This document shows, piece after piece, positions 2,521-53,199 of a DNA stretch of 64,000 bases. The position numbers and the translations under genes are program-made. The stretch's first letter is position 1; each line of letters begins with the position of its first letter. The DNA lies in assembly GCA_020058765.1 (NCBI GenBank), contig JAGVDM010000003.1:52019-116018 (forward strand), in the 5' to 3' direction. The DNA comes from Candidatus Peribacterales bacterium. GTDB taxonomy: Bacteria; Patescibacteriota; Gracilibacteria; Peribacterales; Peribacteraceae. The notes under the pieces were generated by a model that worked only from the letters and a program-made list of their open reading frames with translations, had not been told where the DNA came from and did not search any database.

Positions 2521-5500
2521 ATGCTGCACAAGCAGTACCACGAACACTTCGCCTTCACATTCTCGCCCTGCTCGCAGGAGAACCGCTTGGCATGCAAGCA
2601 GCAAGGCAAGAAGAACGACGATCGGGCTGCAACACCAGAGTCCGAGCGAAGCGCACTTGAACGTGGCCGCACTCCGCAAGAAAAGCAGGACCGCATGGAA
2701 AACGATGTGGCCGGCATGACCTCGGAACGACGCCAGCGCATTCTGCGCCATGTGCCCACCGCACTTCTTGATCAGTACACGATGGGTGCGGCATACCTCA
2801 CCGACACACTCATAAGCATCCTTGGTGAGGATCAGCTCAAGCGACTACTCAAACAGCACCCGGAGTTCCGTGCGCTCAAAATTGAGCAGACTGCGGATAT
2901 TGAAACTCTGCTATCGCAGGCGTTCGAAACGGAAGGCAAGCGTAGCTCCGCACTGCTCTCCACCATGGACACACGCATGGCCATGCTCCTCACGCAGATG
3001 CTGGAAAGCAAAATCCGGCAATTCGAAGAGCTCAAGGAAGTGGCACTTCGCCATATGCAGAACGATGAAGCGCTCACGCACGCCGTGGACGCACAGGAGC
3101 AGAAGCTGTCATTGCAGTCTCGTACAATGGACGATTGGCTGCGTACCGCGAGCACCAAGGAACTCTGTGCCACGCTTGGCGTCCCAGAGGTTGCCGATGC
3201 AGATCGTGCAATGCTCCTCGGCCGCATTCGCGGCTACATCCAAAACAAGCGCAAGCTCGATCAATGGAACCTGCCGGAAATCGCACGCAACGAACACCTG
3301 CGCACCATGCTGCAGCGTACGGGCGATCTCTCTGGCGTGCAGAAGCAGCTCTACGACCAACTGCGCAAATCGCTCCCTGTAGTAGCTGGGGTGCTAGATG
3401 CGCAACTGAACGAAGAAGCGGAGAAAACCAATGCATGGCTCACCGAAGAAAAACAGCGCTACGGATCGTTGCTGCAGGACATCACGCCAGAAAATCAGGA
3501 TGACCGCGAAGCGGCATTCCAGGCGCAGCATGGCGTGAGTGCCATCGCCGTTGCTCGCGAAATCGAGGAAACCGAATCCACGATCGCTTTCGCGAAGAGC
3601 GGCGACACAATCAATGCCAATGACCCCGGCACAATTATGAATGCCAGTGCTTTGGTGGAACGGCTGTCGCAGATGCGCAGCTACCCCGATGGCACACCCA
3701 AAACCGTGGTGGACACACTACGCCCAGAACAAGAAGCCGCAGAGCAATGGGCTGGTGCTATGCGCAGTGAACTCCACGAGCTGCTCCACAAGCAGTACGC
3801 CTCGCCAGATCAGCGCCAGCAATTGGCACAGTGCTTTGGAACACCGGATGTATTTGCAACACTCACCACGCTGGAGGCCGATCTACAGGTATCAGATCAT
3901 AACCCCCGCGGTGTGAATGCTGTGGAGTACACACAGAGCAGACGACGTGCGCTGGAGCACATGGTGCGCAGTCTGCGCAGCAACCGAATTGCACAAGCAA
4001 TGAACGCGCATGCGCTACACGAAGAAGATCGCGTGCAAGCATCACAACCAGACAAAACTGTGCTAGATGTGATCCAGGAAACACGTGCACGATTGCAGGC
4101 GGCAACACAGGAGATCGTTGCCATACCCGAAATTGGGAATGGTGTGTCCGGATTGCTCAACGTGCGTCAGCACGTTATGAACCGTGCAGAGACGCTGGAG
4201 CAGGAACTGCGCCAAGCGGAGCTGCAGCGACAGACAGTAACAGGGCTCGGCTACGTGCGAGCAGAAACACGCAAGTTGGAACGTGCAGCCTTGCTCCTCA
4301 CAGACATGCGCCGCATGAAGCACTTTGTGCTCTCAGAAGAGGATTTCGAGCGCCGCACGGGTACGCGGAACCTCGCAGCATATGACCTGGCCAGCGGCGA
4401 CATTCTGGTGAACCGTGACCGCTGCGCACGCGAGAAGGCATCCATCCCCGATCTAGTTCGTCACGAGCGTGAACACGCCGTGCAGGATATTCTCACGCGC
4501 CGAGCAGGAGTGTTCCCATTCCTGCATCGCGCAGCGTTCGAGGTACTCCGCGAGAGCAACCCCGCATTTGGCGATGTGCTCCGCCGCCATGCAGGTGAGT
4601 GGGGCATTGCGCATCAGCGCGAGAAGATTCGCGCGCAAGCTGCAGACCCCGCAGAAGCACAAGCACTGGAAGACGAGCTCCTCACAGAGGAGTTGCTCAA
4701 CCGCTACGTGGATTGGAAGCGCAAGCCGCAGAACGAACTCATCGCAGGAGAGCGCGAGCTCATGGCAATGGTAGAGAATGCCGGACTCGCAGAGAACCTT
4801 CGCGGCATCGCAGAACGTGACCCAACCGCAACGACCCGCGCTGATCTGCAGGATCTACAGATGTTCCAAACTGCAGCCGGGCAGCCCACGTTGCAGGATG
4901 CAACACAGGCGCTTGCAACTGGTACCAATGCAACGACCGTTCCTGCGCAAGGCGGTGAAGCGGCAGACGAAGGCGGTAGCATAGACATGAAGGGCAAGCT
5001 CCACAGCTGCCAGAAGATGATTGTAAAACTAGAGGAGTTCTGCACAGCACAGCCGTACTACAAAGGCGATCTGGACACGACCATCGGTGAATCAAAGCAG
5101 GTCTACAACTACCTTATAGATATTTTCCGCTCGCAAACGGTGAATGGTCAGCCATTCCCCAACCCAGAGCAGCAGCCAGTATTCATCGCGCAGGTGAGCA
5201 AGCTAAAAGACGGATTAAAAGATTTAGTAGATATGACTCAAAACGTTGACAACAAGCTCCACGACCTCACAGATGAAAAACCAGGGCACATTACGGGATG
5301 GAAAGCCTTCTGGGGTAACGTCGCCTTCATGAGCCCACTTGATGTGTACCTGCTGGTGCAGGACTCCATTGAAGACGTGAAGCGCATGTGGAACCGCCGC
5401 AGCAAACAGACGCGTAGCGGCGTGGCGCAGGGGCTCTTTGGCAATATTCCAGAAAACGACCTCCCGGGGCTCCGCTACTTAGGAAGGCTCGCGAAAGAAA

Positions 5501-7017
5501 ACGAAAAACGTGAGCAGCAGGCCGAAGATGAAGAAGTGGACGTGTGGAAGGAGGGTCTCAAAAACAAGGATGCCTACCAGCTCATGGATATCTTGAGCAA
5601 GATTCAGACGAACAAAGACCAGGCGAAGGCCATCTTCTTCCTGCTGGCAGACAAGGGCCGTATCGACTGGGGCGATGAGCGTATTTGGGATCTGCTCAAT
5701 GGTCTGTCGCAGTTCAAAATGCCAAAAGAGCAGTGTAAGCGTGACATTGTGCTGCGTAACAACTGGCTCAACAAATTAGTAAAGGATATTTGGGACGACA
5801 GCGACCAGTTCTTGGACTGGAAGACGAGTAACGACAGCAACTTCAACACCAACCGTGATAAGTTTAACGAGTACGTGGATACCCTCTCGCAGAATAGCGG
5901 CGCAATGCGCGCGGAATTAGAGCGTATCTTGGGAACGTATACGGCATGCAAAGGACGCAATGAAACACCTCCGCAGGACGTGAACCCGCACCTCTACGAG
6001 AAGCTGCTGGAATTCGCGATGGTGAAAGGAAAAATGACAATGGAAGACAAGTTCTACTACCTCATCCGCGGTATTGCAGAAGGCCTGCTGCCGCTCGAAC
6101 GCCTCAACGTGCTCAACAACCAAGTGCTCGGGAGCTTCCCGTTCATCGACTACTTCGCCGGCCAGAACAACACGCTTGCAGAAATCAAGATACTGTCTGA
6201 ACGCATTACTGAATCGGGTAATCGGTTTAAGCCGGGCATGAAGACTACGCTCTTCCTGGAAACAGAGCTCGCTCGCGACGAATCCACCCGCCAGCGCGTG
6301 ACAAAGGTGATCACACGCTCCGGCGAACAGATCGACCACGAAGACGCACCGATGCTGATGGCCTTCCTGGACTACGGAGGAATCGAAGAAATGCTGCAGG
6401 CTTTCTCCGGTCAGCGTCAGCGCATGACCAAAGAAGGACTGAAGAACTCGTACGTTGGTTTCAATACGCTGTTTAAGACGTACGCTCGCGTTGCAGAGCT
6501 CGACCAAGATGGAACAGCGCGCTTTACCTCCAAAGATGCCACGCAACTTGGCCGATCGCTCATGGCGTATATTCACTTCGATAACATTGCGATCCAAGCG
6601 GCTAACGACGGCAAAGGCCGCCAGTCGCTCACCTGGGAACAGGTGGAAAACGAAACAATGCCTTCGGGAGAGGGGCGAACATCTTCCATGTTCCGCGACC
6701 AAATGAACAAGCTTGCCGTGGATATCTTCCGGAACTACGGCATTACAAGCGTGGATGTTGGGGGCAAAGCCGGTGGAGCGAATACCGTCACGCTCGACCA
6801 GTACCTGGGGCAATTGCGCGGCAAACGCCCAACGGGCGACGAGGAGAAGAAGGCACTCTTCGCCGCTACACCAATCTTCGAACAACGGCTTCTGAAAGCC
6901 ATTAATGGAAACCCTTCTGTTTTCGCGCGCACACTGCAGTCTCATGGAAACAGCCTGCTGCAGGAGCGCAGCGAAGACATTAGCGTCGACGCTGTGCGCA
7001 CATCACTCAGGCAGTAG
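2521..7017 (+). CDS. Giant hypothetical protein (1498 aa): coiled-coil-rich N-terminal half, HExxH motif, globular C-terminal half
   Basis: Uninterrupted 4.5-kb ORF. The motif HEREH is at nt 4462-4476 (aa 648-652). I see no TM segment or signal peptide. I do not recognise the family. Confidence 0.75.
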   Translation: MLHKQYHEHFAFTFSPCSQENRLACKQQGKKNDDRAATPESERSALERGRTPQEKQDRMENDVAGMTSERRQRILRHVPTALLDQYTMGAAYLTDTLISILGEDQLKRLLKQHPEFRALKIEQTADIETLLSQAFETEGKRSSALLSTMDTRMAMLLTQMLESKIRQFEELKEVALRHMQNDEALTHAVDAQEQKLSLQSRTMDDWLRTASTKELCATLGVPEVADADRAMLLGRIRGYIQNKRKLDQWNLPEIARNEHLRTMLQRTGDLSGVQKQLYDQLRKSLPVVAGVLDAQLNEEAEKTNAWLTEEKQRYGSLLQDITPENQDDREAAFQAQHGVSAIAVAREIEETESTIAFAKSGDTINANDPGTIMNASALVERLSQMRSYPDGTPKTVVDTLRPEQEAAEQWAGAMRSELHELLHKQYASPDQRQQLAQCFGTPDVFATLTTLEADLQVSDHNPRGVNAVEYTQSRRRALEHMVRSLRSNRIAQAMNAHALHEEDRVQASQPDKTVLDVIQETRARLQAATQEIVAIPEIGNGVSGLLNVRQHVMNRAETLEQELRQAELQRQTVTGLGYVRAETRKLERAALLLTDMRRMKHFVLSEEDFERRTGTRNLAAYDLASGDILVNRDRCAREKASIPDLVRHEREHAVQDILTRRAGVFPFLHRAAFEVLRESNPAFGDVLRRHAGEWGIAHQREKIRAQAADPAEAQALEDELLTEELLNRYVDWKRKPQNELIAGERELMAMVENAGLAENLRGIAERDPTATTRADLQDLQMFQTAAGQPTLQDATQALATGTNATTVPAQGGEAADEGGSIDMKGKLHSCQKMIVKLEEFCTAQPYYKGDLDTTIGESKQVYNYLIDIFRSQTVNGQPFPNPEQQPVFIAQVSKLKDGLKDLVDMTQNVDNKLHDLTDEKPGHITGWKAFWGNVAFMSPLDVYLLVQDSIEDVKRMWNRRSKQTRSGVAQGLFGNIPENDLPGLRYLGRLAKENEKREQQAEDEEVDVWKEGLKNKDAYQLMDILSKIQTNKDQAKAIFFLLADKGRIDWGDERIWDLLNGLSQFKMPKEQCKRDIVLRNNWLNKLVKDIWDDSDQFLDWKTSNDSNFNTNRDKFNEYVDTLSQNSGAMRAELERILGTYTACKGRNETPPQDVNPHLYEKLLEFAMVKGKMTMEDKFYYLIRGIAEGLLPLERLNVLNNQVLGSFPFIDYFAGQNNTLAEIKILSERITESGNRFKPGMKTTLFLETELARDESTRQRVTKVITRSGEQIDHEDAPMLMAFLDYGGIEEMLQAFSGQRQRMTKEGLKNSYVGFNTLFKTYARVAELDQDGTARFTSKDATQLGRSLMAYIHFDNIAIQAANDGKGRQSLTWEQVENETMPSGEGRTSSMFRDQMNKLAVDIFRNYGITSVDVGGKAGGANTVTLDQYLGQLRGKRPTGDEEKKALFAATPIFEQRLLKAINGNPSVFARTLQSHGNSLLQERSEDISVDAVRTSLRQ

Positions 7018-7065: not shown

Positions 7066-7515
7066 ATGCACATCGCCATTCAACGTATAGATCCATCGCT
7101 CCCACTCCCCCGCTACGAATCTACGGGCGCAGCAGGGTTTGATTTTATTACGCGAGAAGACACCGTCATCGCGCCCGGCGCGATTGGGCTCGTGCCAGGC
7201 AATGTGATTGTGCAGGTACCCAAAGGGTACGCGTTGCTCGTACTCCCACGTTCGTCGCTAGCGCGCAAGAAAGGCCTGGTGTGCCCGCACTCCATTGGCG
7301 TCATCGACCAGGACTACCATGGACCAAAAGACGAGATCTTCGTGCAGGTGCAGAACATCACCCAAGAACCCGTGACCATTGAACGCGGCGAGCGCATTGC
7401 CCAAGGGCTCTTTGTGCGAGTGGATCAGGCAGAGTGGCAAGAGGTAGATGGCCACGGCGCACAGACGCGTGGGGGGTTTGGATCCACGGGGAGTAATTCT
7501 ATCTTGAGAACTTAG
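7066..7515 (+). CDS. dut: dUTP diphosphatase (trimeric dUTPase); the last 8 codons are supplied by the inserted cassette
   Basis: Motifs AAGFDF, GVIDQDYHG and the C-terminal motif V RGGFGSTG are present. The tail SNSILRT follows the 55-bp repeat. Confidence 0.9.
   Translation: MHIAIQRIDPSLPLPRYESTGAAGFDFITREDTVIAPGAIGLVPGNVIVQVPKGYALLVLPRSSLARKKGLVCPHSIGVIDQDYHGPKDEIFVQVQNITQEPVTIERGERIAQGLFVRVDQAEWQEVDGHGAQTRGGFGSTGSNSILRT
7436..7490. repeat. 55-bp direct repeat, left copy (dut 3' coding end)
   Basis: ggcaagaggtagatgGccacggcgcacagacgcgtggggggtttggatccacggg matches 8828-8882 at 54 of 55 positions. Confidence 0.95.
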
Positions 7516-8500
7516 ACATCCTCTCAATGTAATTGACAACATCTGCATCGTGAAGATGGAAATCTTCCATCCATTCATCAGAATGGATCGTATCTAGGTA
7601 TCTCTCTCCCCCATCACATAACAGTGCAACAATTCTTTGTTGTGCATCGATTTCGATACGACGCAGGGCTGCCAAGATTACAGCCCCAGAAGAAGGCCCC
7701 AAAAGAATGCCCATGCGGCGCGCAATAGTCCTTACTGTATTATACGAATCGGGCAAGGTTACAGAATCAATACAATCAACACCCTGAAATTCTGATACAT
7801 CTTCATTTGCGTCATTTGTATCAGCATTACCATACTGAACACCAATAGCCTGCAAATGCTTTATCTCTTTTTTTAGAAAAGTGGCGGTGCCACCTACAGA
7901 TCCACCCGTGCCTAAATAGCCTATGATGCCATCGATTTGATCTCCTATATCTCTTTTTATCTCTTGGACAAGAGGTAAATAGCTTTCTGCGTTTTTTTGA
8001 GAATGAAATTGATCCAAATAGTAAATATTCGATTCAATCCTCGTGATCTCAGTTGCCTTCGCATGTAGCACTTCATGACTATCCTGATTCGCAGGAACTG
8101 GACATTCGATTAGTGATGCACCATATGCTCTAATTTCACTAATAATTTGAGGAGGCGTATCGTCAGCAACCACACAAATACATTTATAACCCTTAGCAGC
8201 AGCTAGCATCGCTAATCCAATACCATAGCTGCCGCTTGAGCAATCAATTACTGTGCCGCCAGAATGGATACGACCTTCTTTTTCTGCGACAGAAAGTAAA
8301 TGTTTTGCGGTTCTACTTTTCATGCTGCCACCAGCATTTTCTTTTTCAAGTTTTAAGAAAAGCGAAGCACCATTACTGACTGGATACACAAACGTACTTG
8401 TTCTGCCGATCAATTCTTCAACATCACGATGCATAAATCTAGCCAGAAACCTCCTCCTGGCTGCACGAATGCAGCCAGGAGTTTTAGAACTTTCCTGCAA
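7499..8500 (-). CDS. PLP-dependent cysteine synthase / CBS-family (CysK-like) enzyme
   Basis: Contains the PLP-lysine region ENAGGSMKSRTA, the glycine loop GTGGSVGG, and SSG near the C-terminus. The ORF-track start at 8500 is TTG. The first ATG is at 8434 (MHRDVEELIGRT). Confidence 0.8.
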   Translation of the reverse strand: MQESSKTPGCIRAARRRFLARFMHRDVEELIGRTSTFVYPVSNGASLFLKLEKENAGGSMKSRTAKHLLSVAEKEGRIHSGGTVIDCSSGSYGIGLAMLAAAKGYKCICVVADDTPPQIISEIRAYGASLIECPVPANQDSHEVLHAKATEITRIESNIYYLDQFHSQKNAESYLPLVQEIKRDIGDQIDGIIGYLGTGGSVGGTATFLKKEIKHLQAIGVQYGNADTNDANEDVSEFQGVDCIDSVTLPDSYNTVRTIARRMGILLGPSSGAVILAALRRIEIDAQQRIVALLCDGGERYLDTIHSDEWMEDFHLHDADVVNYIERMSKFSR

Positions 8501-8526
8501 TCAGCAGTCAATATGATTCGGGGGAA

Positions 8527-8727
8527 TCAGCTGAAAATGATTGCGTAGGCAACAGGCAAAGCAATTGCCAAGAGAATGACGGGCAAGCAGCCCAATCGAG
8601 CGGGCGGAACTGCCCCTGAGGCATTACACTGGGGGCAGGGAATCTCTTCGGAGAAACTGCGACCACAGTGATTTGTTCCACCACCACTCAGTACCGTCTT
8701 TTTGCCCTTACACCTTGGACACTTCAT
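8527..8727 (-). CDS. Small zinc-ribbon protein with a C-terminal TM anchor
   Basis: MKCPRCKGKK...CPQCNASG has two CxxC pairs, followed by the hydrophobic stretch LGCLPVILLAIALPVAYAIIF. The ATG at 8727 is preceded by GGAGGTG. The ORF-track start at 8745 is TTG. Confidence 0.55.
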   Translation of the reverse strand: MKCPRCKGKKTVLSGGGTNHCGRSFSEEIPCPQCNASGAVPPARLGCLPVILLAIALPVAYAIIFS

Positions 8728-8777
8728 CAAACACCTCCGTTTCAAATAGAACTGCCGGACTGGAAAGAACTCACCTC

Positions 8778-8805
8778 AAGATATCATGTATACTTTATTT
8801 GTCAA
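8778..8805 (-). promoter_or_regulatory. Sigma70-like promoter of the cassette operon (TTGACA-16 nt-TATCTT)
   Basis: The minus strand reads TTGACAAATAAAGTATACATGATATCTT, about 50 nt upstream of the Zn-ribbon gene start. Confidence 0.4.
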
Positions 8806-8827
8806 TAAAGTGACACGAACAGTACAG

Positions 8828-8895
8828 GGCAAGAGGTAGATGACCACGGCGCACAGACGCGTGGGGGGTTTGGATCCACGGGTACGCACGCGTAA
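8828..8895 (+). pseudogene. dut: Displaced original 3' end of dut (right 55-bp repeat plus the native terminus ...GFGSTGTHA*)
   Basis: Reading the right repeat in the dut frame gives EVDDHGAQTRGGFGSTGTHA followed by a stop at 8893-8895. Confidence 0.75.
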
Positions 8896-8906
8896 CAATG
8901 CAAACA

Positions 8907-8943
8907 CCCCGTAGAGACGTGCCGCCGGCACGTCTCTACGGGG
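8907..8943. terminator. Bidirectional stem-loop terminator between the dut remnant and ftsZ
   Basis: Perfect 17-bp stem: CCCCGTAGAGACGTGCC-gcc-GGCACGTCTCTACGGGG. Confidence 0.7.
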
Positions 8944-8963: not shown

Positions 8964-10220
8964 TTAATCCTTCGCACCCGTCACGCGCTTGCGCATGAAT
9001 GCGGGAACCTCCAGCTCCTCTTCGTTGAACTTTGGAGCAGTGTTCTGTTCAAAAGAGGAAGGCGTGGAACTGCGCGTAGGAATGCCGCGCTGATTTGCTG
9101 CCTCCTGGGGCTTGCTCGTGTTGCGTGCAAGTGCCTCGGCAAGCGGACGCTTTGCTGTGGAGCCGTATGCTGCCAGGCCCCCGAGCTCGCGCTGTTCAAA
9201 GCCCGTAGCGATCACCGTGCACTTCACTTCACCAGTGTAGTTCTCATCGATCACGGCACCGAAGATGATGTTGGCATCGGAATCCGCGGCCTCGGTAATG
9301 ATGCGTGCTGCCTCATCCACCTCGAACATACTGAGGTCGTTGCCTCCCGTGATGTTGAAGAGGATTCCCTTGGCTCCATCGATCGAGAGCTCCAGGAGCG
9401 GGCTATCCACTGCAGCACGTGCTGCCTCTGCGGCGCGGCTGTCGCCGGTGCCGTAGCCAATACCCATGAGTGCGGTACCGGCATCCTGCATGATGGTCTT
9501 CACGTCGGCGAAGTCCACGTTCACAAGACCGTGCACTGTAATGATATTGGAAATACCTTCGATAGCGTGCTGCAGCACTTCGTCTACTACCTGGAATGCT
9601 TCGGTGAGTGGTGTCGTCTTATCAATGAGCGACAGAATTTTGTCGTTCGGGATCGTGACGAGCGTATCGACTTTGTCGTGGAGCGACTCGAGTGCCTCAT
9701 CGGCCTGTTTGCGGCGCTTCATTCCCTCGAAGCTGAATGGCTTGGTGACAACGGCAACCGTAAGGATACCCATGCTACGAGCCAAATCGGCAATTACACC
9801 GATACCCCCCGTACCCGTACCACCACCGAGACCGGCGGTGATGAAGACCATGTCTGCACCCTCCAGTGCAGCCTTGAGTTCTTCTGTGCTCTCCTCGGCA
9901 GCCTTCTTGCCGATATCTGGATTGGCACCAGCACCAAGCCCGCGAGTTGTACCGCGACCAATGGTGATCTTGGTACCCGCTGGGTTGTGGTACAGCGCTT
10001 GAATATCCGTATTCACCGCTACGAATTCCACACCCTGCACCTTGGCTTCCACCATACGGCGCACTGCGTTGGAACCGCCGCCACCTACGCCGATCACGCG
10101 GATCGTCGCGCCGGCCAGCACATCGGGACGGACTTCCTTGGAACTCGCGCTGTCGTCGCGCGGGGGCTGCATGCCGCCGGGGCGGGAGCCGCTGAACAGG
10201 TTACGAAGCGTGTCTGACAT
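8964..10220 (-). CDS. ftsZ: Cell division GTPase FtsZ
   Basis: Tubulin signature GVGGGGSNAV and GGGTGTG, with a disordered C-terminal tail. Confidence 0.97.
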   Translation of the reverse strand: MSDTLRNLFSGSRPGGMQPPRDDSASSKEVRPDVLAGATIRVIGVGGGGSNAVRRMVEAKVQGVEFVAVNTDIQALYHNPAGTKITIGRGTTRGLGAGANPDIGKKAAEESTEELKAALEGADMVFITAGLGGGTGTGGIGVIADLARSMGILTVAVVTKPFSFEGMKRRKQADEALESLHDKVDTLVTIPNDKILSLIDKTTPLTEAFQVVDEVLQHAIEGISNIITVHGLVNVDFADVKTIMQDAGTALMGIGYGTGDSRAAEAARAAVDSPLLELSIDGAKGILFNITGGNDLSMFEVDEAARIITEAADSDANIIFGAVIDENYTGEVKCTVIATGFEQRELGGLAAYGSTAKRPLAEALARNTSKPQEAANQRGIPTRSSTPSSFEQNTAPKFNEEELEVPAFMRKRVTGAKD

Positions 10221-19242: not shown

Positions 19243-20169
19243 ATGCAACTCTTCGCAGGATCTTCCCATCCGGCACTGGCGACCGCGCTCGCAGAGGCCT
19301 TGGGCGCTACGCAGGGGAAAATTGAGCTCAAAACCTTCAGCTGCGGCGAGCAGTATGTGAAGTTTGGCGAGTCTGTACGCGGCAAAGACGTCTACATTCT
19401 GCAAACGGCGACCCGCAACCCCGATCAAGATCTGATGCAGCTCTTCTTGATGTGCCAAGCGGCAAAGCTGAGTTTTGCGGAATCGGTACACGTGATTGTG
19501 CCCTACTTCCCGTACGCACGGCAGGATCGTGTAGCCGAGCCGCGCGAACCGATCTCCGCCAAGCTCGCAGCACATTTGCTGGAGCGCTCTGGTGCAGACC
19601 ACGTGATTACGCTCGACCTACACTCCAGCCAGATCCAGGGCTTCTTTTCCATCCCTGTAGATGCACTGGAAGCTCGCACGATTTTCGCGGACTACTTCCG
19701 TAAGAAGAAGCTCAAAAACCCCGTGATCGTTGCCCCGGATGTGGGCGGAGCCAAGCGCACCAAGAAGTTTGCCGATCTGCTAGGTGCCGATCTGGCGATC
19801 TTGCACAAGACCCGCCCAGAACATCAGAAGTCTGAAATTGTAGAAGTGGTAGGAAATATTGAGGGGCGCACCTGCATTTTATTCGATGACATGATCGACA
19901 CCGCAGGCAGCCTGCTCTCTGCCAAACGTGCATTGGAGCAGCGTGGAGCGAGTGGGGAAATTTACGCTGCGGCAACGCACGCGATCCTCTCGGGTAATGC
20001 AGAAAAGAACCTCAAAGAAGCCGGGTTTACAGAGATCGTGGTTACAGACAGCGTCCCCGTGGATCACTCCATTGCCAAGATGACGGTGCTCCCTATTGCA
20101 CCCCTGCTTGCCCGAGTGGTCACGCATATCGAACGTCGCGAGAGCGTGACGGAAATCTACGAGAATTGA
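19243..20169 (+). CDS. prs: Ribose-phosphate pyrophosphokinase
   Basis: MQLFAGSSHP..., PYFPYARQDR and the PRPP loop DDMIDTAGS are present. Confidence 0.93.
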   Translation: MQLFAGSSHPALATALAEALGATQGKIELKTFSCGEQYVKFGESVRGKDVYILQTATRNPDQDLMQLFLMCQAAKLSFAESVHVIVPYFPYARQDRVAEPREPISAKLAAHLLERSGADHVITLDLHSSQIQGFFSIPVDALEARTIFADYFRKKKLKNPVIVAPDVGGAKRTKKFADLLGADLAILHKTRPEHQKSEIVEVVGNIEGRTCILFDDMIDTAGSLLSAKRALEQRGASGEIYAAATHAILSGNAEKNLKEAGFTEIVVTDSVPVDHSIAKMTVLPIAPLLARVVTHIERRESVTEIYEN

Positions 20170-20240
20170 GAGCACTGAAACCTGCAATCTGGTTTACTGA
20201 CGGAAGTTTGCTACACTTTCGCCAATTTCCCCCTTTTTTC

Positions 20241-20813
20241 ATGTTGAAACGTTCCGTACCGGCAATGATTGCCGCCACGTCCCTGCTGCTCACTGCAGCA
20301 CCAGCTGCAATGGCAGCAAGCACATGCGACACGCTCACGGGTCGCGAGCAGATGCGCTGCGAAATCGCACAGACGCGCCTGAATCGTAATCATCTGCGCT
20401 CTACGCAGGCAGAGGAGCGCTCATCCTTCCGCAGCTCCGCAAAGCAGCGCGTGATGGAGTCCACTCCTGGTGAAGCACGCAGCACCACGGTACGCGACCT
20501 CGGCAACGAGCGCCGCGCACTGCAGCGCATGCACCGCAACCAGCGCAAGACGTTCATCAATGAACTGCGCTCTGATCGTCGTGACTTGATGGAGAATGTC
20601 CGCAACACGCGCCGCGCACAGAAAGAGAACTTCCGCCTGCAGGTAAAAGAGCGCAAAGAGCTCATGCGCTCCACGCTCCAGAAGCGTGCTGCCGTACAGG
20701 AACCAGAAGTGGAAGTAGAGACCGAGGTTGAGACAGAAGTGGAAGTAGAGACCGAGGTTGAGACCGAAACGGAGGTCGAAACCGAGACCGAAACGGAGGA
20801 AAGCGCAGAGTAA
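20241..20813 (+). CDS. Secreted basic coiled-coil protein with an acidic (E-V/T)n repeat tail
   Basis: Signal peptide MLKRSVPAMIAATSLLLTAAPAAMA, an R/K-rich helical middle, and the C-terminal EVEVETEVETEVEVETEVETETEVETETETEE. Confidence 0.65.
   Translation: MLKRSVPAMIAATSLLLTAAPAAMAASTCDTLTGREQMRCEIAQTRLNRNHLRSTQAEERSSFRSSAKQRVMESTPGEARSTTVRDLGNERRALQRMHRNQRKTFINELRSDRRDLMENVRNTRRAQKENFRLQVKERKELMRSTLQKRAAVQEPEVEVETEVETEVEVETEVETETEVETETETEESAE
20706..20800 (+). repeat. Coding tandem repeat (two exact 30-nt units plus degenerate copies)
   Basis: gaagtggaagtagagaccgaggttgagaca occurs at 20706 and again at 20736 (29/30 identical, last base a vs c), followed by degenerate GAA/ACN/GAG units. 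Confidence 0.8.
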
Positions 20814-20860: not shown

Positions 20861-20960
20861 GTACCAGTTCGCGCAGGAGACGATTGACGCAGTGCACCCG
20901 ATTCGTATGATGGACGCGACGTGCAGGCTCCCGCCTGCGCGTGGTGCTCATTGCATGAAC

Positions 20961-21067
20961 GGGCGATGAGCTCAGCTGGGTCGAGTGCCGCTTGCGGCAC
21001 GAGCCATAAAGAAAAGATGCGACACTGTCGCGCTCACGCTGGGCAATCACACTATCATTCACAACAC
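20961..21067 (+). other. tRNA-Ile 5'-half mimic / leader module, copy 1
   Basis: GGGCGATGAGCTCAGCTGG matches tRNA-Ile nt 1-19 at 18/19 positions. It is followed by the hairpin GTGCCG-CTTG-CGGCAC (20985-21000), the A-rich tract, and the mini-hairpin GCGAC-ACT-GTCGC. The last 42 nt are identical to copy 2. Confidence 0.6.
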
Positions 21068-21173
21068 GGGCGATTAGCTCAGCTGGGCCGAGGATTCTCT
21101 AGAGAATCCGAGCCATAAAAAGAACGCGATCTGTCGCGCTCACGCTGGGCAATCACACTATCATTCACAACAC
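21068..21173 (+). other. tRNA-Ile 5'-half mimic / leader module, copy 2
   Basis: GGGCGATTAGCTCAGCTGG matches 19/19. Its hairpin is GGATTCTC-TA-GAGAATCC (21092-21109), a completely different sequence that is still self-complementary. Confidence 0.6.
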
Positions 21174-21250
21174 GGGCGATTAGCTCAGCTGGTTAGAGCG
21201 CGACACTGATAATGTCGAGGTCCGCAGTTCAAGTCTGCGATCGCCCACCA
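21174..21250 (+). tRNA. tRNA-Ile (anticodon GAT), CCA encoded
   Basis: Hand-folded: GGGCGAT/ATCGCCC acceptor, anticodon arm CGACA-CTGATAA-TGTCG, T arm CGCAG-TTCAAGT-CTGCG. Confidence 0.95.
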
Positions 21251-51498: not shown

Positions 51499-53199
51499 TT
51501 ACATGCGGTCGGGCATGCGGAGCGTAAGAAGTTCTGCTCCACAGCGGAGGACCTTGGCCGTAAGGGAAGTGAGCGCCAAGCGCAGATCACGCGTAGTACC
51601 CTGCGCCGTCAAAATCGGATCGGCGTTATAAAATGCGTTGTAACTCTGGCAGAGCGCGTACAGATAATTCGCAAGAATATGCGGCATGTGCTCTTTACGT
51701 GCCTGCTGTAGCGCATCTGCAAAACCTACGAGTGTATTCACTACATCACGTTCATGCGCGGAGAGTGCCTCCGCCTTTTTGGGGAGTGCAACAGTCTCCA
51801 TCTCCGCCTTGCGCAGCACTGAGCATGCGCGGGCGTGCGTGTACTGGAGGTAGGGGGCGCTGTTGCCCTCAAAGCTCAGCATTTTTTCCCAATCGAAGAC
51901 AATCTCCTGCTTGCGATTTTGGCTCAAAATGCCGTACACAAGTGCGCCAACACCCATCATTTCGGCAAGAGCATCTGCATCATCTGTCTGGATCGCTTCA
52001 CCGCGATCGGCAATCACTTTGGCAGCACGCGCTACTCCCTCTTGGAGCACCTGCTCAAGACTGAGAATGTTCCCTTTCCGCGTACTCATAGACGAGTCTG
52101 CAAACCGCATGCGACCGAACAGCACATTCTGGAAACGCGGGAGCTCCCAGCCAAGCATGACGCATGTTTCCACAAGCTGCTCAAAGTGCAGCTTCTGCGC
52201 GATATCGGTGAAAATGAGGATCTCCTGCGGATTATAGGTATCAATGCGGTAACGCATTTGTGCCAGATCGCGCGTGGAGTAGAGCGTTGCACCGTCGCCC
52301 TTGAGCACCAAGTACGGCGGCATGTTCTTGTCTTCCGGGAATTGCACAATGAGCGCTCCCCCTTCGCCCTCGGTGAACACTGCTTTCTTTTTTCCTTCCG
52401 CGAGAACGGGTGCCATTTTGTCTTCGTAGAAACTCTCGCCGAGATCTAGATCAAAGCGAACGTGCAAGCGGCTGTATACATCTGCCAATGACGCTTTTGT
52501 CACTGCGACAACATCTGCCCAGAATGTGCGAAGTGTTTTGTCTCCGCTTTCCAATGCGCGAAACGCCTCTCGACCCTGTTCTTCGAGCGATGCATCTTTT
52601 TCTACCTCATCATGAAACCGCACATAGAGCGCGAGTAATTCATCGATCGTATGATCTTTGACGGACTTTTTCCCTCCCCACTTTTCATACGCAACGGCCA
52701 GTTTGCCGAACTGCGTTCCCCAGTCGCCGATGTAGTTCCAGCGAATCACCTTGTAGCCCGCATGTTGGTACAAATTCGCTGTCGCTTGCCCAACAACTGT
52801 CCCAATTAAGTGATGCACACCAAGCGGCTTGGCAATATTCGGCTGGGAGTACTCCACGATCACTGGTGCCTCCTTGCGCTCTGCAATCGCCTCACTCGCA
52901 ACGATACTGCTCTGCAATCGCTCCAAATGCCCCTCTGGGCTCAACCAAACGTTTATATATCCCGGTCCGGCGATCTCCACCTTCTCCACGCCCGGTTGCC
53001 CTTGGAGGGACGTGAGCAATTCCTGTGCAATCTCCACAGGCTTCGCCCCCACCTGCTTGGCAATCTGCAACGCAACCGGCGTAGCAATGTCACCATGCGC
53101 AGCGTCGCTCGGGCGGCTCCATGTGACTACAACATCATTGAGCCCCCTCGTCTTTTTGAGGGCGTTTTGGATGGCCGAATTCCACCGATTAATTACCAT
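51499..53199 (-). CDS. argS: Arginyl-tRNA synthetase
   Basis: HIGH-type motif (PLGVHHLIGT), MSTRKG in place of KMSK, and a DALR-type C-terminal anticodon-binding domain. Confidence 0.95.
   Translation of the reverse strand: MVINRWNSAIQNALKKTRGLNDVVVTWSRPSDAAHGDIATPVALQIAKQVGAKPVEIAQELLTSLQGQPGVEKVEIAGPGYINVWLSPEGHLERLQSSIVASEAIAERKEAPVIVEYSQPNIAKPLGVHHLIGTVVGQATANLYQHAGYKVIRWNYIGDWGTQFGKLAVAYEKWGGKKSVKDHTIDELLALYVRFHDEVEKDASLEEQGREAFRALESGDKTLRTFWADVVAVTKASLADVYSRLHVRFDLDLGESFYEDKMAPVLAEGKKKAVFTEGEGGALIVQFPEDKNMPPYLVLKGDGATLYSTRDLAQMRYRIDTYNPQEILIFTDIAQKLHFEQLVETCVMLGWELPRFQNVLFGRMRFADSSMSTRKGNILSLEQVLQEGVARAAKVIADRGEAIQTDDADALAEMMGVGALVYGILSQNRKQEIVFDWEKMLSFEGNSAPYLQYTHARACSVLRKAEMETVALPKKAEALSAHERDVVNTLVGFADALQQARKEHMPHILANYLYALCQSYNAFYNADPILTAQGTTRDLRLALTSLTAKVLRCGAELLTLRMPDRM

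Follow-up and report, generated by a model that had tools for sequence, protein, structure and literature searches.

A recombinase-less islet of 1.3 kb at the 3' end of dut in a Candidatus Peribacterales bacterium, and small inserts at the same site in other Peribacteria

Cis-mobilizable elements (CIMEs), described at the sites of streptococcal integrative conjugative elements (ICEs) and integrative mobilizable elements (IMEs), have lost their integration and transfer genes and kept the attachment sites attL and attR (PMC5704250). They are the closest known analogue of the subject of this report, a 1337-bp insert with two genes, for a zinc-ribbon membrane protein and a pyridoxal 5'-phosphate (PLP) enzyme, lodged in the 3' end of the dUTPase gene dut of a Candidatus Peribacterales bacterium (Patescibacteriota; Gracilibacteria; Peribacteraceae). 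The DNA analysed, called the window below and numbered from its first letter, is a stretch of 64,000 nucleotides (nt) from contig JAGVDM010000003.1 of assembly GCA_020058765.1 (forward-strand positions 52,019 to 116,018). Like a CIME, the window islet keeps attL- and attR-like repeats and an intact target gene, and holds cargo only, with neither integrase nor transfer genes; unlike a CIME, it lacks a known cognate partner (an integrase-bearing ICE, IME or prophage) at dut in the Peribacteria loci examined, it is only 1.3 kb long, flush with its repeats and free of gene remnants, and its host belongs to the Candidate Phyla Radiation (CPR). An earlier reading of the window, made from its letters and open reading frames (ORFs) and referred to here as the sequence-only reading, could not place the structure in a known family; its CIME-like anatomy, and analogues at the same site in other Peribacteria, now give it a place.

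Other described systems share part of this anatomy. Islands associated with dusA insert in a coding gene and restore it, universally with an integrase, at the 5' end of dusA in Proteobacteria (PMC4482086); they and the window islet have in common a conserved coding target, a gene end supplied by the island and variable cargo at one conserved site, whereas the window islet is without an integrase and sits at the 3' end of dut. The CR2-sul2 unit is mobilised by the GIsul2 integrase at an attB site downstream of guaA, and both the integrase and the att cores have been identified experimentally (PMC9376610). It too is a small, att-flanked cargo unit without an integrase of its own, and its recombinase is encoded elsewhere, whereas the window islet has no candidate recombinase. 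Integron cassettes are likewise compact units of one or two genes, with diverse cargo (including toxin-antitoxin pairs) at one site and the recombinase outside the cassette; the window islet differs from them in having no attC hairpin, in carrying its own promoter, in repeats that are coding sequence of the target, and in its surroundings, which comprise genes for a 1498-aa protein, dUTPase (dut), FtsZ and FtsA and show no intI/attI platform. Cargo modules left by tycheposons in Prochlorococcus, and island remnants elsewhere described, are without integrase, are flanked by partial tRNA copies and recur at hot spots, and systems of this type have identified tyrosine recombinases and tRNA targets. 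Partial copies of a target end around small cargo are the feature shared with these (locus L081, described below, is a tRNA-Asp case in Peribacteria), whereas the target in the window is a protein-coding motif with no known recombinase. Measured against gene-3'-end islands and IMEs at large, the window has the repeats containing a gene 3' end, the regenerated target and the empty sites, without an encoded recombinase. Integrative mobile elements exploiting Xer (IMEX) rely on host Xer at dif and have dif-like 28-bp repeats at the replication terminus; the observations bearing on them are that the window repeat is coding sequence of dUTPase motif V and that cumulative GC skew declines evenly along the 64 kb, without a switch near 7-9 kb. 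From transposons and insertion sequences the islet is set apart by the absence of a transposase and of terminal inverted repeats, and by a duplication of 55 nt instead of 2-15 bp.

An integrase-less islet flanked by att-like sites at a gene end falls within a known concept. What is new is the target, motif V of dut, the CPR host, the tiny insert flush with its repeats, and the recurrence of such inserts with diverse cargo and no recombinase in sight. How CPR bacteria, whose genomes are tiny and in which few mobile elements have been recognised, acquire genes is poorly understood. The locus offers a clean, datable case of gene gain, in which foreign DNA with a promoter has settled in the essential dut-ftsZ neighbourhood and damaged neither gene.

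The islet, its repeats and the empty sites

The islet lies between two copies of a 55-nt direct repeat (7436-7490 and 8828-8882), which cover the motif-V codons of dut and are identical at 54 of 55 positions. The single mismatch, G in the left copy and A in the right one at position 16 of the repeat, leaves an exact stretch of 39 nt; it is not polarisable, relatives showing both Asp and Gly at that residue. There is no third copy in the 64-kb window, nor any in 100 dinucleotide-preserving shuffles, and, repeats around tRNA genes and one short tandem repeat aside, this is the sole long direct repeat in the 64 kb.

The left, attL-like copy encodes (W)QEVDGHGAQTRGGFGST(G) of the working dut gene (7066-7515, plus strand; trimeric dUTPase, 149 aa) and is in frame with it. 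The ORF matches the Pfam dUTPase model across the full profile (E 2.6e-26) and NCBIfam PRK00601 at 131 bits (cut-off 103), and because dUTPase models are matched at full length the gene is judged intact, with a new tail of seven residues. Residues 1-142, including motif V (RGGFGSTG), are native-type, whereas residues 143-149 (SNSILRT) and the stop at 7515 are insert DNA, the C-terminus thus reading RGGFGSTGSNSILRT (...GSTGSNSILRT). The right, attR-like copy begins the displaced native dut 3' end (8828-8895, plus strand), which reads QEVDDHGAQTRGGFGSTGTHA (...RGGFGSTGTHA) up to a TAA at 8893-8895. This displaced end has the same tail as dut of the closest relative, L001, and is joined to no start codon, a stop codon standing eight codons 5' of the repeat. 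Behind it come a perfect bidirectional terminator hairpin of 17-18 bp (8907-8943), placed between the ancestral dut end and ftsZ, and then ftsZ itself (8964-10220, minus strand, its stop at 8964), a conserved convergent neighbour and the synteny anchor for the comparisons below. The duplicated dut end, the two C-termini with the terminator behind the right-hand one, and the regeneration of the target gene had all been put forward by the sequence-only reading and were recovered here, the repeats at the same coordinates.

FtsZ assigns the organism to the Peribacteria/Peregrinibacteria (CPR). By FtsZ identity, the closest relatives are L001 (88%), L002 (84%) and L004-6 (80%). All share the order ~1500-aa protein, dut, convergent ftsZ, ftsA, with a dut-ftsZ gap of 50-80 nt and no insert, and the window minus the insert aligns collinearly with their dut 3' ends. 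Neither cargo gene occurs in any of 86 loci (80 of them Peribacteria genome loci fetched via ftsZ), and the window cassette is absent from all 114 other dut loci examined, most of which are empty sites. The segment is a lineage-specific insertion, as first supposed, and the empty site proposed as its check is present in L001, L002 and L004-6. The right-hand arrangement is the ancestral one, again as supposed, because dut of L001 ends GSTGTHA, exactly as the displaced right copy is read, and because THA is the commonest tail among Peribacteria dUTPases; SNSILRT is unique.

The insert (7491-8827), absent from all relatives examined, also stands out in composition. The window as a whole has a G+C content of 55.1% and ftsZ one of 58.5%, whereas the insert has 43.2%, the lowest value of all 1337-nt segments of the window (4.7 standard deviations under the mean), and 7491 is exactly where this lowest segment starts. 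The AT-rich discontinuity noticed earlier is thereby real, the hand-counted figures attached to it (30-35% against 65%) being exaggerated. Most of the signal comes from the PLP-enzyme gene (41% G+C), whose G+C content at third codon positions (GC3) is 0.31 as against 0.51-0.70 in 65 other predicted genes; the zinc-ribbon gene, at 52.7%, is near the host value. The cargo of the insert is compositionally foreign. It leaves no free coding space, the remainder consisting of 8 nt between the left repeat and the stop of the enzyme gene, a 92-nt intergenic spacer and 100 nt of promoter region.

Inserts at the dut 3' end in other Peribacteria

The dut 3' end is a recurrent insertion hot spot for small recombinase-less inserts, found in at least six species other than that of the window. 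When 114 distinct dut loci, all with sufficient sequence beyond dut, were scanned for a second copy of motif V, five besides the window had one; L174/175 add the sixth other species and are kept outside the five because their working dut copy is off the contig and only the displaced copy is seen. The simplest case, L074 (on the same contig as L118; 11975-12422), has a 77-nt repeat, 79% identical, around a 294-bp insert with one 84-aa ORF without a Pfam match. In L116 (3221-4031), an 82-nt repeat with 100% identity encloses a 647-bp insert that encodes a Phd/YefM antitoxin and a ParE toxin, and Phd-ParE pairs of the same family occupy the site in L170/171 (L170:3579-4384; 81-nt repeat, 83% identical), L172/173 (L172:2996-3700; a repeat remnant of 24-36 nt) and L174/175 (L174:301-640; a displaced copy of 77 nt), with toxins 66-71% identical to that of L116. 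In all, at least five Peribacteria species have Phd/YefM-ParE directly downstream of dut, in four of them with a displaced dut end behind it, and a conserved, palindromic, operator-like TGTACGTTATAcTGTACA precedes the antitoxin gene. The same pair is present in L068 (7030-7555), where a remnant of a displaced dut end was not detected; in L073, a more distant member of this sub-clade, the site is empty. The displaced copies of the species that carry the pair show no clear clustering, and a single and a repeated insertion are indistinguishable from them.

The remaining case, L105 (1698-2236), resembles the window most in layout. Its insert of ~510 bp is followed by a displaced remnant reading SATRGGFGSTG and a stop, and holds one minus-strand gene, whose 107-aa product is a double-zinc-ribbon protein with a transmembrane helix at the C-terminus, on the strand opposite to dut and behind a TTGACT-16-TATAAA promoter, an arrangement that equals the zinc-ribbon end of the window cassette. 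The ORFs of L105 and of the window are the only two in 1.9 Mb to pass a filter for small proteins with two CxxC motifs and a C-terminal transmembrane helix, a filter set post hoc, and the two proteins have no detectable sequence similarity.

Across the measurable repeats (window, L074, L116 and L170) the distal boundary falls 0-5 nt past the codon for the final Gly of motif V and the proximal one is variable, giving lengths of 55-82 nt, and the distal copy keeps the native terminus wherever relatives permit a check. The dut-ftsZ gap is a generally permissive site. A further apparent repeat, at L063, was dropped as an artefact beside a run of N.

Bracketed inserts were also seen at other gene ends. 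At the dut 5' end of L056 (11697-13282), a mirror case, repeat copies of 110 nt that are 75% identical and show many synonymous differences enclose a 1366-bp islet of small genes, including one for a DUF5678 protein and a weak aspartyl-protease-like ORF, with no recombinase. In L081 (1116-2125) the 3' 46 nt of a tRNA-Asp gene are duplicated (96% identical) around an 888-bp islet that carries one 180-aa ORF without a Pfam match and no integrase. Another kind of bracketed insert is found beside tRNA-Val in L008 (16977-17821) and L020 (19144-19995), where small genes for GIY-YIG nucleases lie in low-G+C stretches bracketed by direct repeats of 50-82 nt; GIY-YIG genes also occur in the tRNA-Val neighbourhood of L001 and L002.

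Routes of entry and their alternatives

The window cassette is a horizontally acquired islet, integrated by recombination that regenerated the end of its target gene. As to how this came about, we regard as about evenly poised the view that it entered by recombination in the last ~55 nt of dut with incoming DNA that held a dut end, and that it is now a recombinase-less and probably expressing islet. On this view the acquisition was a recent one. Incoming foreign DNA would have brought along a dut 3' end of its own, and a crossover between the chromosome and this DNA, inside the shared stretch (the last ~18 codons of dut), would have produced the present order: dut with the proximal repeat and its seven-residue tail, the cargo, the displaced GSTGTHA end and the old terminator. 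From its own promoter the islet would then express the zinc-ribbon membrane protein and, after it, the PLP enzyme. Our first choice for the joining agent, on the model of CIMEs, would be a site-specific recombinase that acted in trans or has since been lost, and the islet, again like a CIME, would now be fixed or at best mobilisable in trans.

The older, diverged inserts suggest that one of the two dut-end copies probably came with the insert from another lineage. Codon differences between the copies are 10 synonymous to 2 nonsynonymous in L170 and 9 to 3 in L074 (binomial P 0.003 and 0.015, respectively), set against the ~60% of differing codons that should be nonsynonymous had a duplicate decayed neutrally beside the working copy. 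The nine codons of TRGGFGSTG aligned in L105 all differ between the displaced and the working copy, and the peptide is the same. Since the differences are mostly synonymous, both copies would have evolved within working dut genes, a signature of integration that regenerates a gene end, which argues against duplication in situ and gives no indication of the enzyme that did the joining. In L074 the displaced copy is typical of the clade and the working copy atypical. In L116, perfectly identical copies coexist with cargo of a family that seems to be of long standing in the sub-clade; the 54/55 match of the window copies may accordingly be due to recency or to gene conversion.

Several results weigh against the proposed entry of a surrogate dut end with the help of a recombinase. 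The window repeat is host-like in codon choice, with ~11 of its 55 positions different in the closest relative, so that the surrogate end would have to stem from the same species or to have been homogenised by gene conversion. The inserts at the different loci share no common sequence and no end motifs, and the single-strand fold of the reconstructed attP is no better than that of shuffles (z -0.69). Searches for tyrosine and small serine recombinases found none in the insert, the window or the ~1.9 Mb around dut/ftsZ that were screened: phmmer with E. coli XerD, a query validated on PDB 1a0p that also detects XerA, IntI4, XerH, Tn1549 Int and HP1 integrase, gave no match in the window, in 86 earlier loci or in 83 further ones (~170 Peribacteria loci together, each covered within 5-10 kb of dut/ftsZ), and neither the window nor the ~170 loci contained a match to an unvalidated gamma-delta resolvase query. 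Nor was there an integrase-bearing counterpart at the dut site among the ~170 loci. The insert is, moreover, flush with both repeats, which argues against simple decay of a larger island, because a decayed integrase gene has no room there, the left side offering 8 nt and the promoter standing 22 nt from the right repeat.

Pfam searches of 20 mid-sized window proteins likewise returned no integrase or transposase, and no terminal inverted repeats of 14 nt or more were found at the insert ends, in agreement with what the sequence-only reading had stated on all three counts. Of its suggestion of a decayed island, the integrase-less, att-flanked, CIME-like anatomy stands, and the lack of gene remnants argues against simple decay; of the site-specific integration between attL and attR that it proposed, the repeats, the regenerated dut and the empty sites stand, whereas the junctions may or may not be the work of a recombinase. 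Viral contigs yielded only distant phage dut genes and none of the Peribacteria type.

RecA-dependent, homology-anchored insertion after DNA uptake, in which no dedicated recombinase would take part, is a possible explanation that we nevertheless hold to be rather unlikely. One route would be a Campbell-type single crossover with a circular fragment that carried ~55 nt of dut; the other, homology-facilitated illegitimate recombination (HFIR), would be anchored in the conserved dut 3' end, the far end being joined illegitimately 55 nt upstream of the end of the homology so as to create the duplication. Competence for DNA uptake is generally attributed to CPR bacteria, and the absence of a recombinase near the inserts in the loci screened speaks for such a process, as do the boundaries, since a variable proximal limit (55, 77, 81 and 82 nt) and a distal one at the end of conserved coding homology are expected where homology sets the limit. 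The atypical working copy and clade-like displaced copy of L074 count on the same side, and the synonymous bias between copies fits a donor from another lineage. Yet the process needs a near-identical (54/55) dut copy already fused to foreign DNA of 41% G+C, that is, a prior event of like kind; 55 nt is close to the lower limit of RecA-dependent recombination; no microhomology is visible at the junctions; and the reported HFIR events, to our knowledge, delete recipient DNA and do not duplicate it.

Duplication in situ, whereby foreign DNA was caught at a staggered break or by template switching and 55 nt of host sequence were copied on both sides, is very improbable. It requires no function encoded by the element and accords with copies that are nearly identical here (54/55) and wholly so in L116 (82/82). 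It fails to account for the mainly synonymous differences of the diverged copies, most plainly the nine recoded motif-V codons of L105 with their peptide kept, or for a distal boundary within 0-5 nt of the motif-V end in each measurable repeat, and 55-82 nt far exceeds known target-site duplications. An assembly artefact, we think, is very improbable. The chromosomal site would then be empty, and a separate 1392-bp circle or a strain variant sharing the repeat would have been threaded into the contig. Such an error is conceivable in a single metagenome assembly with the cargo proteins on one contig only and with a mismatch-free stretch of 39 nt in the repeat, a length comparable to the k-mers of assemblers; a scan of metagenome contigs for this 39-mer core found no matches, and with them no empty site or circular junction from the same species, the source contig itself also not being returned. 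Against it, the one-base difference between the copies means that no k-mer was collapsed, and the same architecture recurs in independent assemblies, from different assemblers and in the separate-sample pairs L170/L171, L172/L173 and L074/L118; an artefact, besides, would still imply an element with a copy of the dut end. That the cassette is ancestral and was lost from relatives, which the availability of only one genome of the species might allow, is effectively refuted by its absence from all 114 other dut loci, a GC3 of 0.31 that shows no amelioration to the host, a repeat still 98% identical and a displaced end that is the native one of the clade.

A wider proposal could be entertained, tentatively and with more doubt than confidence: the inserts may represent an undescribed class of minimal integrative cassettes in Peribacteria, of 0.3-1.4 kb and one or two genes, whose sole mobility determinant would be the surrogate gene end (that of dut motif V here, with analogues at the dut 5' end and at a tRNA 3' end), the window cassette being the youngest known member and the only one with an enzyme. 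Such cassettes might spread between lineages through a host or trans-acting recombinase, or through natural transformation and recombination in the surrogate end. The hot spot has a signature that can be searched for genome-wide, namely a displaced gene end with mostly synonymous differences from the working copy, and among its cargo are small membrane proteins, a PLP enzyme and a toxin-antitoxin pair. Should the process do without a recombinase, the site would exemplify homology-anchored spread of cassettes in CPR; should it need one, the site would be a handle for finding an enzyme that recognises a protein-coding motif.

Cargo genes and other features of the window

The cargo looks like a self-contained minus-strand operon, consisting, as predicted from its sequence, of a promoter, the zinc-ribbon gene, an RNA hairpin and the PLP-enzyme gene. 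Both genes, named by the sequence-only reading as encoding a zinc-ribbon membrane protein and a CysK/CBS-family PLP enzyme, are intact, and the TTGACA-16-TATCTT promoter that it pointed out is present at 8805-8778 as a pattern match. This predicted sigma-70-like site (TTGACA-16-TG-TATCTT; 8778-8805, minus strand) has 10 of 12 consensus matches and an extended -10 element, and is placed 50 nt before the start of the zinc-ribbon gene, with 22 nt between it and the right repeat; its pattern class is not enriched over shuffles. The first gene (8527-8727, minus strand; 66 aa), with GGAGG 6 nt before its ATG, encodes two CxxC(x)G motifs of the kind seen in the DnaJ cysteine-rich domain or anti-TRAP, followed by a C-terminal hydrophobic or transmembrane helix, and has no homologue among 1.84 billion representative proteins.

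The second gene (7499-8434, minus strand; 311 aa) encodes a fold-type II PLP enzyme of the CysK/CysM/CBS/SbnA family (Pfam PALP, E 1.2e-49), and its 3' end overlaps the new tail of dut. The catalytic Lys (GGSMK) and the GTGG and SSGA motifs are present when the protein is aligned to the solved structures of CysK, CysM, CBS and SbnA, whereas the substrate loop reads SSGSYG in place of the SGNTG of CysK and the PDB homologues. Scores of 144-174 bits place it well below every NCBIfam equivalog cut-off for CysK, CysM, CBS and SbnA (344-510 bits), and the best match besides itself in 5.8 billion proteins is 35% identical. The enzyme is a highly divergent member of the cysteine-synthase family with an altered substrate loop.

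In the 92-nt spacer between the two genes lies an RNA hairpin with a 12-bp stem and a 4-nt loop (8454-8481, minus strand; region z-score -4.3, equalled by none of 200 shuffles). Its 3' arm holds part of the Shine-Dalgarno-like AGGAGGAGG motif upstream of the PLP-enzyme start, and it could, on the predicted fold, control translation of the enzyme or stabilise the mRNA; an Rfam search of the insert gave chance-level matches only and no family for the hairpin. No terminator of the cargo operon was found before the point at which transcription would run antisense into dut. A reading of the cargo as a defence system found no meaningful match in PADLOC, and a PHROGs search gave nothing informative. 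The search for copies of the cassette elsewhere, suggested with the sequence-only reading, came back empty: there was no blastn match in plasmid or phage collections and nothing in viral contigs, the PLP enzyme matching nothing above 35% identity and the zinc-ribbon protein being an orphan.

The nearest Peribacteria homologues of the PLP enzyme (~330 aa, 33-36% identical) are encoded at L087:2161-8577 and L089:651-7931, in a context different from that of the cassette. They belong to a conserved cluster with genes for two ATP-grasp proteins, an ornithine/arginine-decarboxylase-like protein and arginase-family proteins, and in L087 only a radical-SAM protein, which from its gene content looks like an uncharacterised small-molecule pathway.

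Upstream of dut, the window encodes a protein of 1498 aa without a Pfam domain (2521-7017). Throughout Peribacteria, dut has a gene for a large protein (~1120-1525 aa) as its neighbour; in the closest relatives this gene is upstream of dut, and in the sub-clade with dut co-oriented with ftsZ it is downstream and convergent. Genes for four-helix-bundle proteins of the PF05635 family ('23S rRNA intervening sequence') occur between ftsZ and dut in L021, L024, L029, L034, L074 (11226-11603) and L172 (2149-2607); the assignment was tested with Pfam for L074, is listed for L172/L173, and follows from sequence pattern only in L021, L024, L029 and L034.

Elsewhere in the window, one or two pseudo-copies of the 5' part of a tRNA (GGGCRATKAGCTCAGCTGG) precede tRNA-Val and tRNA-Ile (1685-1862 and 20959-21250), each followed by a G+C-rich hairpin and an A-rich tail, and among them is a perfect 62-nt tandem pair (21025-21086/21131-21192). 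A perfect 30-nt tandem duplication (20704-20763) lies within the ORF at 20166-20813.

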